Of a stretch of DNA of 42,907 nt, positions 26,330 through 32,032 are shown piece after piece. The first letter of the stretch is position 1. Every line of letters starts with the position of its first letter. A program made the position numbers and the translations under genes. The stretch is from positions 137,618 through 180,524 of IMG/VR virus record IMGVR_UViG_3300017747_005082, one strand, 5' to 3'. Source of the stretch: a virus. Lineage: Duplodnaviria > Heunggongvirae > Uroviricota > Caudoviricetes. A model generated the notes under the pieces. It saw nothing but the letters and a program-made list of their open reading frames with translations, had not been told where the DNA came from and ran no database searches.

Positions 26330-28693
26330 TTATATTCTTCTAGTTGATATAGCCATTGGTGTTGATAATTCCTGAGATACTTTATTTCCATCTAAATTAA
26401 CCACCATACCTCTATTTACAGCTCCAATTAAACTATCTAATTTGTTAATCATAACATCCATTTTATTACCTAATGTTGATGAAATATCTGATATATTACT
26501 TGATGGTTGTTTATCTCCAAATAAATTAGTACCTGCTATTATTTTATCATCTTTATTTAATTGGATAGATCCTTTTGGGCCAGATACTACAACACCCCCA
26601 TCAGAGTCAATTACCCCATCATTCATTTTAACAGAAGATTTGGCAGAATTCATAGCTGCTACAGAAGCTGCTATACCTCCTGCTATAGCAATAGCACCAA
26701 TACCTAAAGTAGTAGCGGAAGCTGTTGATATAGCTGCAATAGCCATACTTATCATTTGAGGTAAAGCCATGGCTGCAGCAATTGCTGCTCTTATTAAACC
26801 AGGTACTAAAGATGCTGTTACTGCAACTCCTGCAGCAGTTAATGCACCTGCTATACCTGCTGTAACAGGTCCCATTTCTACTAAAGTATCATGTAAAGAT
26901 TTAGTAGGATCAGTAATAGCACTAATTATATCTTTAATACCATTAAATGCATTAGCAATAGGAGTTAGAACAAATGATACTAAATCTATTAATGGAGATA
27001 CAAAAGCCATTACAGGTTCAGCTAATGCTACGAAAGATTCTTTCAGTTTTTCTGTTAATGCTAAAAATCTTTCTTGTATATTAGCAGATTTTGTTTGTCT
27101 ATCTAATTCTTCTTTACCTAAATCTGCTATTGAAGATAGATTAAATCCTTGTGCTTTTAAATTCGCTAATTTTTTTCTATTTTCTTCATTATCTTGGTAA
27201 CCTAATTTTGCTAGGGCTTGTTGTTCAATTAACATTTCACCCATTTGATCTTTACTTAATCCTATAGCTTTAGCTATAGATTCTTGTTGTATAGCATTTA
27301 AACCACCCCATTTAGTTAGATCAATACCTTGTTTTGTAATTTCTTTAGATAAACCTGCTATATCATTAGTTAAAGCATAATATCTAGCTCTTTCTAAATT
27401 TAACATTCTTCCAGTTATTACCTCAGCTTCAAATTCTGATGCAATAGAACTTTCTATATCAAGTAAAGATTTAGCTATTCCTTCAACTTCTTTTATATTA
27501 GTACCTAATTTTTTAGCTTCAAATGCAGCTTCTGCTAATTTTGCAGGATTTTGGGAATATGTAGCTAATAAAGCTTTAGAAGTATTATTAATATCATTAA
27601 GTAATGCTTTACCATTAATTGCTAAATTATTTTGTAAACTTAATGATTTTATTTGTCCTAAATATTGGGCAGATATTTCTTTAAGTGTTTTATTTGTGGC
27701 ACCTGATAGTTTACTTAATGTAGTAACAGCTTCTACAGAATATCCAGCTTGTACTGTTAATTCAACGTAATTAGTTAATAACTCTCCACTTAAAGCAACA
27801 TTAGTACCTAATGAAACATTTAATTCATTTTGTGCCTTTACTAATGATTTAGTATTAATAAAAATATTATTAGAAGATGCTGCAATATCAGTTAATCTTT
27901 CGTTTATTTTAGATGCTTCATCAAATGATGTACCGAAAGTTTTAGCAGTTTCACCTGCTAAATCATCTAATTTAAGAAATGCTTGAGTTAATTGAGTTAA
28001 TAAAAAACCTCCTATAACAAGTGGATCTTTTATTGCACCTAATAAAGCTTTCCCTACATTTTTTCCTATAACCCCTAATCCTTGTAATTTACCAGCAAAA
28101 CCATCTCTTAATTTTCCTTGAGCCTCTAAATCAGATATTTCTTCTCTTGTAGTTTCTGCAATATCATTAGTATCTATACCTATTTTTTTTAAAGTAGCAC
28201 TCCATCCTTTCAAAAACATTCCCCCAATACCAAAAGCAGAATTAATTTTATTAGATAAAGATAATTCCATTTCAAGAGAAGTAATATTCTCTTGATTCAT
28301 ATTTCTTTGTTCTTCTAAACCATTAACTATATCTAATAATATAGCTCTTTCTCTTCCTGATACTAATAATGCCTTTTCTCTCAATTGAAGAATTTCTGTA
28401 TCTAAAGATTTGGTAATATTTAATGCTTTAGTTAAATCTTTTTCAATTTCTCTTTGGGAACGAGTTAGTTTTTCTCTTTGAGTTGCTTGATCAACTAATT
28501 GTTTATTTAAATTAGTTAATTCTCTATTAGATCTGTTAATTCTTAAAGCTTGCTCCCCAGATATTTTGGCCATATCAGATAACTGTTTTGCTAGAGATAC
28601 TTGTTCCCTAATAATATCAGTATTGATACGATTAGCTTCTAGTTGTTCAGATAGAAGTTGATTTTGTAATTCTAATTCGTCTAAATTGGCCAT
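26330..28693 (-). CDS. tail tape measure protein
   Basis: 787 aa, Ala/Leu-rich and helical, with hydrophobic Ala/Gly C-terminal repeats; canonical position after the tube and chaperone genes. Confidence 0.85.
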   Translation of the reverse strand: MANLDELELQNQLLSEQLEANRINTDIIREQVSLAKQLSDMAKISGEQALRINRSNRELTNLNKQLVDQATQREKLTRSQREIEKDLTKALNITKSLDTEILQLREKALLVSGRERAILLDIVNGLEEQRNMNQENITSLEMELSLSNKINSAFGIGGMFLKGWSATLKKIGIDTNDIAETTREEISDLEAQGKLRDGFAGKLQGLGVIGKNVGKALLGAIKDPLVIGGFLLTQLTQAFLKLDDLAGETAKTFGTSFDEASKINERLTDIAASSNNIFINTKSLVKAQNELNVSLGTNVALSGELLTNYVELTVQAGYSVEAVTTLSKLSGATNKTLKEISAQYLGQIKSLSLQNNLAINGKALLNDINNTSKALLATYSQNPAKLAEAAFEAKKLGTNIKEVEGIAKSLLDIESSIASEFEAEVITGRMLNLERARYYALTNDIAGLSKEITKQGIDLTKWGGLNAIQQESIAKAIGLSKDQMGEMLIEQQALAKLGYQDNEENRKKLANLKAQGFNLSSIADLGKEELDRQTKSANIQERFLALTEKLKESFVALAEPVMAFVSPLIDLVSFVLTPIANAFNGIKDIISAITDPTKSLHDTLVEMGPVTAGIAGALTAAGVAVTASLVPGLIRAAIAAAMALPQMISMAIAAISTASATTLGIGAIAIAGGIAASVAAMNSAKSSVKMNDGVIDSDGGVVVSGPKGSIQLNKDDKIIAGTNLFGDKQPSSNISDISSTLGNKMDVMINKLDSLIGAVNRGMVVNLDGNKVSQELSTPMAISTRRI

Positions 28694-28719: not shown

Positions 28720-28747
28720 AAAAAAAGCCCCTATTTTTTAGGGACTT
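28720..28747 (-). terminator. intrinsic terminator overlapping the chaperone stop
   Basis: Minus strand AAGTCCCT-AAAAAAT-AGGGGCTT-TTTTT; 8-bp stem with one G.U pair. Confidence 0.7.
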
Positions 28748-29048
28748 TAGTAGTATATGTATTAGTTGTTGTAGGTGGTTTAGCTATATCTTTTACATTT
28801 TTAGCAGTTATCATATTATTTTGTTTATCTATAGCATCATTTTTATCTTGATAAAATTTCTCAATTTTTTTATAGGTTAATTTTCTCAACCAAATAGGCA
28901 TATTATAAACTGTCCCCCAATCATAATTATTACCATGAAAAACAATCTCATGTATTTCATCAAATAATTTTACTCTATAATTTTGACTCAGGCCAAAAAA
29001 AGTTAAGAGAAATTGGAAATGGTGTGCCCTCCACATCACCCTCTTCAA
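28731..29048 (-). CDS. second tail-assembly chaperone frame (gp51/GT-like), probably expressed by frameshift from the upstream gene
   Basis: The plausible part starts at FFGLSQNYRVKLF...YDWGTVYNMPIWLRK and has no convincing start of its own. It overlaps the upstream ORF by 74 nt across a T7 run. Confidence 0.7.
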   Translation of the reverse strand: MKRVMWRAHHFQFLLTFFGLSQNYRVKLFDEIHEIVFHGNNYDWGTVYNMPIWLRKLTYKKIEKFYQDKNDAIDKQNNMITAKNVKDIAKPPTTTNTYTTKVPKK

Positions 29049-29736
29049 AATAAACTAATTCAACATCTGGTGATACTCTTTTCATTTCATTTCTTAAAGC
29101 AATTGCTTCCTTAGCTAATAATCCTTTATCAACAAATTCTCTAATAGAACCCGAGGTTCTATCCCCATTTATTGAAGTAATTTGGAATTTTAACCTTGTT
29201 GATGATGTTGGTGGAGTACCATTTGGAAATAATTTTGCCAATCCTTCCAATTCTTTATCTATTTTTTTCTGATCTCCATTAGTTAATAATTTATATGTTA
29301 CTGTATTTTTAGAAAAAGGTAATTCATATTTAAATTCATTTACCCTAATTTCGATCATGTCTTCTTCTTTTAGTATCTTATCTTTTAATGTAGTTAAATC
29401 AATTGTTTTTTCAATTATTTTACCTTTTCCATCAGTAGTTTTAAATATATAATCTTTTCCATATCCTAAAATACGAGATGCTATTAATAATGCATTAAAA
29501 TCTCCAATTATAATATCATCCAATTCTACTTTATTAACTAATAATGATTCTATTACTTTATAAAATACTGTACCTCCATTAATATAATTTTGATTGGTTA
29601 AAATATCTTCTTCTTTAGCTGTCATATATTTCATTTCAACTACTCCAGATGAAAGAGGATGATCTTCTGGATAAATTAATCCTCTTGAAGGAAGTTCCAC
29701 TAATTCTGTGGGGATCGTAAATTTTTGTTCAGACAT
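28975..29736 (-). CDS. tail/baseplate-hub assembly chaperone (T4 gp26-like)
   Basis: ELVELPSRG-x-x-Y...VEMKYMTAKEEDIL is characteristic; lies between the tube and tape measure genes. Confidence 0.8.
   Translation of the reverse strand: MSEQKFTIPTELVELPSRGLIYPEDHPLSSGVVEMKYMTAKEEDILTNQNYINGGTVFYKVIESLLVNKVELDDIIIGDFNALLIASRILGYGKDYIFKTTDGKGKIIEKTIDLTTLKDKILKEEDMIEIRVNEFKYELPFSKNTVTYKLLTNGDQKKIDKELEGLAKLFPNGTPPTSSTRLKFQITSINGDRTSGSIREFVDKGLLAKEAIALRNEMKRVSPDVELVYFEEGDVEGTPFPISLNFFWPESKL
28995..29001 (-). other. candidate +1/-2 slippery site (AAC TTT TTT TGG)
   Basis: Seven T on the coding strand; frame 0 reads N-F-F-W-P and the +1 frame reads T-F-F-G-L. Confidence 0.6.
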
Positions 29737-29771: not shown

Positions 29772-29804
29772 AAAAAAAGAAAGCCCAATCTTTCGATTGG
29801 GCTT
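29772..29804 (-). terminator. intrinsic terminator after the tail tube gene
   Basis: Perfect 10-bp stem AAGCCCAATC-GAAA-GATTGGGCTT followed by TCTTTTTTTC. Confidence 0.9.
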
Positions 29805-29824: not shown

Positions 29825-30313
29825 TCAGAAATTTGATATTGCGTAATCCATTCCAAGAGTAACATTAATTTGAATAGCAGAGTCTCCATTAGACCAATCA
29901 TATTCACCAAAATTAGAATTTTTAATAAATGCTCCTTTTAATATCCATTCTCCTACAATATCCCCTACAGGTCCTAATATTACCATAGAACAATCTTTTT
30001 TATAAAAATCTGAATATCCATCTCTACCTGTTACTGATTCGTGAGATAGTCTAAACCATTCCATTACAGCTTGTGTACCAGAAGGGGTAATTGGGTCGTA
30101 CATTTGTAATGTAACGTCTTGCCATCTTACTTTACCTTTAATTTTACGATAAACATTAATATGTTCTAGTGTAATTTCTCCAGCATCAAATGAAGGAGTT
30201 TGAGCTTTATTAATTATATATGCAGGAATACCATCAACATAAAACAAAAATCTATTAGGAGTTTTTGGTTCATAAGCGGTAAACATCATTGTATTTGTAT
30301 CTAATACTGCCAT
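29825..30313 (-). CDS. tail tube protein (T4 gp19-like)
   Basis: EPKTPNRF, KIKGKVRWQDVTL-x-x-YD, WILKGAF-x-x-x-x-x-FGEYDW; follows the sheath. Confidence 0.9.
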   Translation of the reverse strand: MAVLDTNTMMFTAYEPKTPNRFLFYVDGIPAYIINKAQTPSFDAGEITLEHINVYRKIKGKVRWQDVTLQMYDPITPSGTQAVMEWFRLSHESVTGRDGYSDFYKKDCSMVILGPVGDIVGEWILKGAFIKNSNFGEYDWSNGDSAIQINVTLGMDYAISNF

Positions 30314-30352: not shown

Positions 30353-30375
30353 AAAAAACCCTCATTGAGGGTTTT
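30353..30375 (-). terminator. intrinsic terminator after the sheath gene
   Basis: AAAACCCTC-AAT-GAGGGTTTT then TTCTTT on the coding strand. Confidence 0.8.
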
Positions 30376-30385
30376 AACCTTTTTA

Positions 30386-32032
30386 TTAGAAAGTTGTTCC
30401 TGTTGGAGAAACATTAAAGTCTAATATAACAAATTCTATTGTTTTAGCTGGTTGAATATAAATTTGTCCTACTAATTGATTTCTATCAATAACTGTAGGA
30501 TCATTATTAGCATCCTCCATTACTACTTTATAAGCATATAATCCTCCTCTTTGTTGAACAGAGTCAAGATATGGTCTAACTCTAGATAAGAAACTATTTC
30601 TAGTAGATTCTAAATTATTCTCAAATACAAGTGTATTTCCTACTTGACCTATATACCCTTTTAATTCAATTAAACATCTTCTTACATTAACTCTATCAAG
30701 AGCTGATGGTTTTGCTATTAATGTTTTTTGTCCATAAACTACATTTCCTTGTCCTGGGAAACTAGCAATAGCGTTAACTTTACCTTGATACAAAGCATCT
30801 TTATCAGATGGTTTTAATTTTCTTTCTGTTTGAACAATTGAAATTCCTCCTCTTTTAAAACCTGCAGGAGCAAACCATGGTGCAGCTATTCTATCATTAT
30901 AAGCATATACTGATGGAATTATTGTTGAAGGTGGAACCCATGATAATTTTCCAGTATTTGGAGAATTTACTTGTAAATATGGATAATATGCTGCTGCATA
31001 TGAGTTATCAATTTCTGCTGCTTCTGCTATTACTGTTGATACATTAGCTCCTTTTCCAGCTAAATCAATAATAGCTATAGCATCTCCTCTATCTTGTGTA
31101 TTAGATAATAATAATGAAATAGCTGCACTATGGTTTGCTTGATTTAAACCAGGTACACTAATTACATTATATCTAAATTCTAATGGATTTGCCAATAAAT
31201 TCAATGAACCTGTATAATCGTTTGCAGTTAATCCATCAACTGCGGATAAATTTCCTGTAGCTCCATTAAAAGTACCACTAGCTACTACTGGAATAGAAGC
31301 AGTATATTGAGTTAATGCAGTTCCATTATTATCAAAATAGTTTAAAGTTGGAGATAATACTTGTTTAACTCTAATATATCTACTTTTATTAGTATAATCA
31401 CCAACAGTATCTAAAAATCCATTAGTTAATGTAGTAGCTTGATTACCAATTATAGCTTCTACATAATTAGTGCTATTTGGATCTAATGATAAATTTGTCC
31501 AAGATTCTAAAATAGTTTTTGTAGTACTATTATCATTTCCACTTCTTATTAATAAATTGAAAGTACCATTAGCTATATTTACTGATGGAATTTCCCATCT
31601 TATATTATCTACAGTCCCACTAACTAAAGCTCCATTATTCAATTCAGAGCCTGAACTATTCATTATATTTCCTGCTGATAATGTTTCTAATACTAATGAA
31701 GAACTTAATAAACTATTTAATATAGGAGTCGATGTTGCAGGTGCAAAAGCTCCTGATACTACTCTTGTTACTAATAATGAATCTCCTCCTTGTTGGAAAT
31801 AATTATAAGCAGATACTGATGTTAAATATTCATTTGTTGTAGAACCACTATTAAATGCTCCTCCAAATTTAGATAAGTAATCGCTATATGAAGTTGTAAG
31901 TGTAGGTACATTTACAGGTCCTTTAACTGTAGGTCCCACTATAGCAGCACCAGCTACCTGTGGACCTTGTGTGATTTGTGAGTTATTATTCTCTCTAGTT
32001 AATACCCCAGGAGATAAAAGTGTTTCAGCCAT
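30386..32032 (-). CDS. contractile tail sheath protein (T4 gp18-like)
   Basis: LLSPGVLTRE, GPTVKGP, WFAPAGFKRG, GQKTL, LDRVNVRR, IYIQPAKTIEFV. Confidence 0.96.
   Translation of the reverse strand: MAETLLSPGVLTRENNNSQITQGPQVAGAAIVGPTVKGPVNVPTLTTSYSDYLSKFGGAFNSGSTTNEYLTSVSAYNYFQQGGDSLLVTRVVSGAFAPATSTPILNSLLSSSLVLETLSAGNIMNSSGSELNNGALVSGTVDNIRWEIPSVNIANGTFNLLIRSGNDNSTTKTILESWTNLSLDPNSTNYVEAIIGNQATTLTNGFLDTVGDYTNKSRYIRVKQVLSPTLNYFDNNGTALTQYTASIPVVASGTFNGATGNLSAVDGLTANDYTGSLNLLANPLEFRYNVISVPGLNQANHSAAISLLLSNTQDRGDAIAIIDLAGKGANVSTVIAEAAEIDNSYAAAYYPYLQVNSPNTGKLSWVPPSTIIPSVYAYNDRIAAPWFAPAGFKRGGISIVQTERKLKPSDKDALYQGKVNAIASFPGQGNVVYGQKTLIAKPSALDRVNVRRCLIELKGYIGQVGNTLVFENNLESTRNSFLSRVRPYLDSVQQRGGLYAYKVVMEDANNDPTVIDRNQLVGQIYIQPAKTIEFVILDFNVSPTGTTF

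Follow-up and report, generated by a model that had tools for sequence, protein, structure and literature searches.

Between the tail tube and tape measure genes of an uncultured 180-kb phage, two open reading frames on the minus strand overlap in different frames, and beyond the candidate shift site the second has no methionine codon for about 30 codons. How is the downstream frame translated, and what does it add to the upstream one? We address these questions in a window of 42,907 nucleotides, a term used here for the whole stretch of DNA that was analyzed, which belongs to a genome represented by a single 180,524-bp contig with a GC content of 26%. The reading that we favor, and consider likely, is that a programmed +1 ribosomal frameshift yields two forms of one protein, of 253 and 334 amino acids; this reading is drawn from comparisons of sequence. 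The upstream frame is termed ORF A and the downstream frame ORF B, and the features needed to follow the argument are listed here with their positions in the window; the genes of this region all lie on the minus strand.

30386–32032, minus strand: sheath gene (PHROG and Pfam matches).
29825–30313, minus strand: tail tube gene, 162 amino acids, the upstream neighbor (phrog_4542 tail tube, E 7.5e-22; match to PF06841 weak).
29781–29804, minus strand: terminator-like hairpin 3′ of the tube gene (10-pair stem, then a T run).
28975–29736, minus strand: ORF A, short form, 253 amino acids, hub/tape-measure assembly chaperone of the gp26/gp51 family, PF12322-type (phrog_150, E 1.2e-6; PF12322 via relatives; model).
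28987–29001, minus strand: candidate shift site and conserved core, TTT TTT TGG CCT GAG (reading of the sequence, homolog alignments).
28996–28998, 28993–28995 and 28992–28994, minus strand: P-site UUU, A-site UGG and first +1 codon GGC, respectively.
28731–29048, minus strand: ORF B, full open frame including the overlap with A.
28731–28994, minus strand: B extension in the +1 frame, 87 amino acids and stop (kept in 82 loci, coding signature, model).
28731–29736, minus strand: predicted long form A-B, 334 amino acids, via the +1 shift.
28724–28748, minus strand: terminator-like hairpin overlapping the stop of B.
26330–28693, minus strand: tape measure protein gene, 787 amino acids, the downstream neighbor (BLASTP to the annotated immuto protein).

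The location of the pair between tube and tape measure, as given in the original prediction, is borne out by both neighbors. The tube gene has the phrog_4542 match listed above, and the 787-amino-acid ORF, which has no Pfam or PHROG match of its own, aligns by BLASTP (E 3e-35) with the protein annotated as tape measure in Flavobacterium phage vB_FspM_immuto, at 25% identity across 584 residues. Terminator-like hairpins on the minus strand lie 3′ of the sheath gene (30355–30375), of the tube gene and of the chaperone pair, dividing the tail module into short units of transcription or attenuation; five terminator-like hairpins were found versus 0.7 expected in shuffles. We also looked for such a hairpin between the stop codon of A and B, and none is present there.

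When read on the minus strand, ORF A ends with CTT AAC TTT TTT TGG CCT GAG TCA AAA TTA TAG, encoding LNFFWPESKL*, and its run of seven T nucleotides appears as A7 at 28995–29001 on the plus strand. The +1 frame across this run reads TTT TTT GGC CTG AGT... (FFGLSQNYRVKLF...), encoding FFGLSQNYR..., and remains open for 87 codons to 28731; the -1 frame closes two codons past the site (TTG GCC TGA). Reading TGGC as one step therefore produces a 334-amino-acid fusion. This re-reading agrees with the original prediction in the end of A, in the overlapping +1 ORF at the T7 run and in the lengths of the two products. It also agrees that there is no methionine until about 30 codons past the site, the first being residue 32 of the extension. 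The +1 frame of the window carries TTG at 29048, GTG at 29039 and ATG at 29036 upstream of the site, and homologs do not keep these codons, but the ATG at 29036 sits behind a GAGG sequence.

An open frame of this size is unusual for the genome. Starting from codons inside its genes, open runs in the +1 frame have a mean length of 9.5 codons, and runs of at least 88 codons occur at 0.64% of positions. Furthermore, only two of the 39 in-frame YTT_TGG sites are followed by a long open +1 frame, namely the site of ORF A and one other. The rarity of both observations indicates that the B frame reflects more than chance.

To evaluate conservation, we scanned IMG/VR, which yielded 599 relatives of A, and kept the 80 best (49–61% identical to the A protein of the window). 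The near set, which takes in the window, the immuto phage and Microcystis phage Mel-JY01, comprises 82 loci in which the site can be examined. A homolog of B in the +1 frame, overlapping the end of A, is present in all 82, and the similarity begins at the slip site. The slippery site is YTT_TGG in 80 loci and TTT_TTC in the other two (L062 and L069), which thus present UUC rather than UGG in the A site and carry nine T nucleotides. A 15-nucleotide core, TTTTTTTGGCCTGAC, is identical in 71 loci, even though the A and B proteins are only about 50–60% identical to those of the window. The homolog alignment that had been proposed as a check confirms the expected pattern: frame 0 conserves FFWP, the +1 frame conserves FFGL, and TTTTTTTGGCCTGA is nearly invariant.

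The portion of B that would be lost with a start at its first ATG is the portion that is conserved best. This is the N-terminal stretch of 38 residues, GLTxEYRxxLFxQIHEIVFHGxGGYDWxTVYNMPIWLR, whereas the first ATG in B homologs is found at codon 34 or 38, downstream of most of it. That first methionine is the conserved one of the motif YNMPIW, and it is absent in some loci. In about 30 loci, there is no ATG, GTG or TTG in the B frame between the preceding stop codon and the YNMPIW methionine. Pairwise differences between the stop of A and this methionine amount to 0.26, 0.17 and 0.50 at the first, second and third codon positions of the B frame, and this concentration at third positions, a signature of coding sequence, indicates that the stretch is translated in that frame.

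Codon choice at the site is constrained as well. F246 is encoded by TTT in 77 of 77 sequences and F247 in 75 of 75. P249 is CCT in 75 of 77 sequences, while other proline columns use all four codons (1.4–1.7 bits), and D250 is GAC in 73 of 74, while GAT is the preferred aspartate codon elsewhere. No codons of the genome are rarer than GGC and CTG (0.8 and 0.7 per 1000), with which the +1 frame begins. The site is nearly invariant despite the codon bias of the genome. However, the invariance of GGCCTGA is no proof of a signal, because dual coding (WPD in frame 0 and GLT in the +1 frame) suffices to explain it.

No in-frame fusion of A and B was found among the best 120 of more than 7900 database homologs of A, which are 248–273 amino acids long, and no longer database protein carries B. 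The two are therefore not joined in a single frame in any relative found. In the public records, neither immuto nor Mel-JY01 nor Bacillus phage HSE3 carries a frameshift annotation.

By profile comparison and structural modeling, A is a member of the gp26/gp51 family (PF12322). The A protein of the window itself scores below threshold against PF12322 T4_baseplate (E 0.01, 15.9 bits, with a cut-off of 24.5 bits), but the family is matched by 53 of 77 aligned relatives (best E 5e-22), and A matches phrog_150 directly with the E value listed above. Its AlphaFold model (pLDDT 91.6) matches BFVD models named ‘baseplate hub assembly protein, T4-like’ with E values down to 2e-19; sequence and Foldseek searches of the PDB returned no solved structure related to A. 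Among the chaperone families of the lambda type, the sole match of the locus is a sub-threshold one to Phage_TAC_13 (E 0.024–0.036). The B protein, folded separately from A, is predicted to form three helices followed by a basic, disordered tail (pLDDT 77.5), and it has no PHROG match, including to phrog_634 and to positions 231–281 of phrog_150, which stand for the tail module of T4 gp51 and the cyanophage small gp51.

More distant relatives reveal which parts of the site can change. The three cultured immuto isolates and one further locus (L078) carry TTT CTT TGG CCT GAC and keep the +1 arrangement (TTTCTTTGG). Another 16 loci (L086–L101), found with a 34%-identical query, carry GGC TTC TTT TGG CCT GA (TTCTTTTGG). 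In this latter type, a +1-frame TAG three codons before GGC confines any shift to a few codons, and there is no start codon. The two variants contain only three to four contiguous T nucleotides. The T7 run, to which the original prediction assigned a central role, is therefore not essential, as these relatives keep the +1 arrangement with TTT CTT TGG or TTC TTT TGG. From such variants we infer a minimal site of YUU_UGG.

A start of B independent of A had been named as a finding that would speak against the original prediction. Two uncultured relatives do have such a start: in L096 (2227–2552) and L102 (2215–2520), B is a free-standing gene in the -1 frame that begins at an ATG of its own, 2–5 nucleotides past the stop of A. 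These versions carry about 20 extra N-terminal residues that are missing from other B homologs, and the site codons of L102 are relaxed to CCA GAT. The separate genes indicate that B can work unfused and that the A-B fusion is not universal. Relatives without the frameshift retain the FF(W)PD motif as well. In a further group, consisting of Bacillus phage HSE3 (L083:4680–4910) and L107–L112, a B-like ORF in the +1 frame follows EFFRP or ELFNP (ELFNPSK). Most members of this clade have no start codon before a late methionine, and candidate slip sites are TTT_C or CCC_A.

The mechanism that we propose is as follows. Most ribosomes would read ORF A to its stop codon and produce the 253-amino-acid chaperone of the gp26/gp51 family. 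A minority would stall while the P site holds tRNA-Phe on the second UUU and UGG occupies the A site, whereupon tRNA-Phe would re-pair one base forward, again on UUU, and GGC would be read next. Translation would then add the 87-residue helical extension to give the 334-amino-acid long form. If lambda gpG/gpGT is taken as a guide, the A part common to both may act on the tape measure or hub, the B extension may add a second contact, and a fixed ratio of both forms may matter in tail assembly. The original prediction had allowed a +1 or -2 event by ribosomal or transcriptional slippage. The site variants favor the +1 ribosomal option over the others, because all keep a UUU or CUU codon whose tRNA is able to re-pair on UUU. 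Indeed, CUU_U and UUU_U are known shift sites of prfB (PMC5009743).

Elements that might stimulate the shift were sought around the site. Folding of the downstream RNA gave z-scores of -1.7 to +2.4, around 0, with no common fold, and Rfam gave no match above threshold at the site. A Shine-Dalgarno-like stimulator upstream at the prfB spacing is absent in the window and not conserved in relatives. The long ORFs of the genome contain 27 in-frame TTT_TGG sites, and since UUU_UGG is not avoided in this way, the bare site is probably weak. We therefore expect a shift of probably low efficiency, as in G/GT.

The tRNA genes of the phage were considered as another source of an unusual decoding event. 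A cluster of 25–26 genes is located at 49065–56162 of the phage genome, outside the window. At default ARAGORN settings the 25 tRNAs lack only one for Trp, which suggested that the UGG codon might be ‘hungry’. However, relaxed thresholds show a tRNA-Trp(CCA) gene inside the cluster, and this idea was dropped. No tRNA with an 8-base anticodon loop is predicted among the phage tRNAs. One tRNA has a CUA anticodon and is labeled tRNA-Pyl by ARAGORN, being an amber suppressor. The stop codon of A is TAG, and its read-through would extend the protein by four codons only. The structural genes of the window are intact under translation table 11.

The alternative that fares best, although it is unlikely, is transcriptional slippage on the T7 run, in which RNA polymerase would omit a single U or insert two extra ones, such that standard translation of the altered message would yield the fusion. 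The run of seven T nucleotides in the window and most near relatives, extended to nine in L062 and L069, fits this explanation, although a run of seven is short among those for which slippage is known. A homopolymer is nevertheless not what the relatives preserve, as evident by the retention of the +1 arrangement with TTTCTTTGG in the three immuto isolates and L078 and with TTCTTTTGG in 16 loci. With only three to four contiguous T nucleotides, these variants fall short of the run length that slippage requires.

We regard as improbable a -2 ribosomal shift on U7, which would reach the same frame with one extra phenylalanine (FFFGL). On U7 the tRNA-Phe could re-pair perfectly two bases back, and a tail chaperone gene provides a precedent, since Mu uses a -2 shift (PMC5009743), as the original prediction had stated. 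The relatives with TTC TTT TGG again carry the argument. There, tRNA-Phe would land on UCU, and the +1-frame TAG of this clade leaves three codons within which the shift must occur. Shifts of -2 usually need strong stimulators, and none is seen at the site.

An equally doubtful alternative dispenses with recoding and treats B as a separate small protein, made either from the ATG at 29036 behind GAGG or by coupling or reinitiation. This reading draws on the potential start codons TTG, GTG and ATG that precede the site in the +1 frame of the window, on the free-standing B genes with their own ATG in L096 and L102, and on public records, which annotate small separate ORFs. It leaves the conserved N-terminal part of B unmade in the approximately 30 loci that have no ATG, GTG or TTG before codon 34, and it offers no start at all in loci of the L086 type, where the frame is closed three codons before GGC. 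Moreover, the versions of B that do stand alone carry an N-terminal extension of about 20 amino acids that the others lack. Finally, a sequencing or assembly error in an error-prone homopolymer, or a pseudogene whose real gene has one frame, can be practically dismissed, because isolate genomes and more than 100 independent assemblies share the same +1 offset, even where the site has no homopolymer, and the database proteins searched include no in-frame version.

Phage T4 gp26 (208 amino acids) and gp51 (249 amino acids) are hub assembly chaperones (PMC3004832) and have the PF12322/phrog_150 domain in common with A. They are products of two separate paralogous genes that involve no frameshift and that adjoin genes 27–29 rather than following the tube gene. 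T4 gp26 consists of the PF12322 domain alone and ends with GLKEFFELL*, few residues past the same FF motif, and gp51 consists of this domain plus an in-frame tail of about 48 residues. The original prediction had likened A and B to a T4-like gp26/gp51 pair. The link to the family holds, but A corresponds to the domain common to both proteins, and B would correspond to the extra tail of gp51.

T4-like cyanophages (e.g. P-HM1, NC_015280) have a comparable arrangement. They encode gp26, a tiny ‘gp51’ and a large tape-measure-like gene in that order, and so resemble the window both in the order A, B, tape measure and in the overlap of B at the FF motif. Among 55 distinct relatives, the small gp51 is always in the -1 frame, open back to a canonical T_TTT_TTC/A heptamer at the gp26 FF motif, whereas the B frame of the window is +1. 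The peptide FFRIALF.. is conserved upstream of the annotated ATG, which many relatives lack, and it aligns to T4 gp51 residues 200–209; in a profile comparison, the small gp51 matches residues 200–252 of T4-type gp51 (E 2e-13, probability 98%). Although annotated as two independent genes, cyanophage gp26 and small gp51 (P-HM1 L122:9360–9560; L123–L202) look joined by an unannotated -1 frameshift.

The similarity of B to these tails is detected with profiles, which are needed here because comparisons of A or B with single T4 sequences by BLASTP or hhalign are uninformative. B matches the profile of the cyanophage small gp51 with E 1.5e-4 and a probability of 51% (hhalign). Its direct link to T4-type gp51 is weak, aligning co-linearly with the tail at E 0.029 in a setting where a known-true pair, A and the gp51 N-domain, gives E 0.013. 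Cyanophage Gp51 and two T4-type hub assembly proteins are among the top Foldseek matches of the B model, all with E above 0.01. When homologs of the T4 gp51 tail were sought, only three close relatives were recovered. Close homologs of T4 gp51 carry, besides PF12322, a precomputed Pfam assignment, PF28602, which may model the gp51 tail, and in one GenBank record a gp51 homolog is already called ‘tape measure protein assembly chaperone’.

On the basis of these profiles and models, the correspondence of the short form to gp26 and of the long form to gp51 is supported, although not proven. We lean toward a broader interpretation, in which the FF motif that closes the gp26/gp51 domain is an ancient recoding junction across many T4-related myoviruses. 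One two-form chaperone may be made in four ways: by a +1 slip in the clade of the window and probably in HSE3-like phages, by a -1 slip in cyanophages, from two adjacent genes in L096 and L102, and from duplicated genes with an in-frame tail in T4 gp26 and gp51.

Several consequences would follow. The tail assembly chaperone frameshift of lambda gpG/gpGT is conserved in long-tailed phages (Levin 1993; Xu, Hendrix and Duda 2004, as reviewed in PMC5009743), and this G/GT device has been described as conserved ‘except T4’ (PMC5009743). If the interpretation is true, T4 is no exception to the rule, with gp26 being G-like and gp51 GT-like. A frameshift in gp26/gp51 homologs at the position of lambda G/GT turns this into a testable assignment of gp26 to the short form and gp51 to the long form. 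One junction that occurs as +1, -1, in-frame fusion and split genes would also make it possible to follow, in a natural series, how recoding switches direction. At a practical level, thousands of metagenomic genomes and several isolate genomes carry a wrong annotation of the locus, which is labeled ‘baseplate hub subunit’ and followed by a small hypothetical ORF.

Other known frameshifts reach the +1 frame in a chaperone gene upstream of the tape measure gene, as proposed here. These include a +1 shift in HSTV-2 and the -2 shift in Mu (PMC5009743), as well as about 350 ‘forward’ chaperone frameshifts in SEA-PHAGES data (PMC10274946). They involve unrelated protein families and hosts, and none is reported for PF12322-type genes. 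We likewise found no report of a frameshift in gp26/gp51-type genes in the literature, within which subscription journals were covered incompletely. A mechanistic parallel is prfB, the gene for release factor 2 with the site CUU_UGA_C, where CUU or UUU in the P site is followed by U and permits re-pairing on UUU (PMC5009743), as proposed for the window. The window differs from prfB by presenting a sense codon, UGG, rather than a stop codon in the A site, by having no Shine-Dalgarno-like stimulator three bases upstream and by having no autoregulatory logic.

Frameshifting at lambda G/GT is a textbook example of recoding. Both the lambda genes and the locus described here lie between the tube and tape measure genes, have a start-less ORF that overlaps the 3′ end of a shorter one, and carry a conserved slippery site that yields products with a common N-terminal part, which in the window are predicted. 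The two differ in the direction of the shift (+1 rather than -1), in the site (YUU_UGG rather than an X_XXY_YYZ heptamer) and in the protein family (PF12322 rather than the chaperone family of the lambda type). We therefore judge that the locus very probably follows the lambda G/GT principle in a +1 version, and that its protein family has, as far as we found, not been published as frameshifted.
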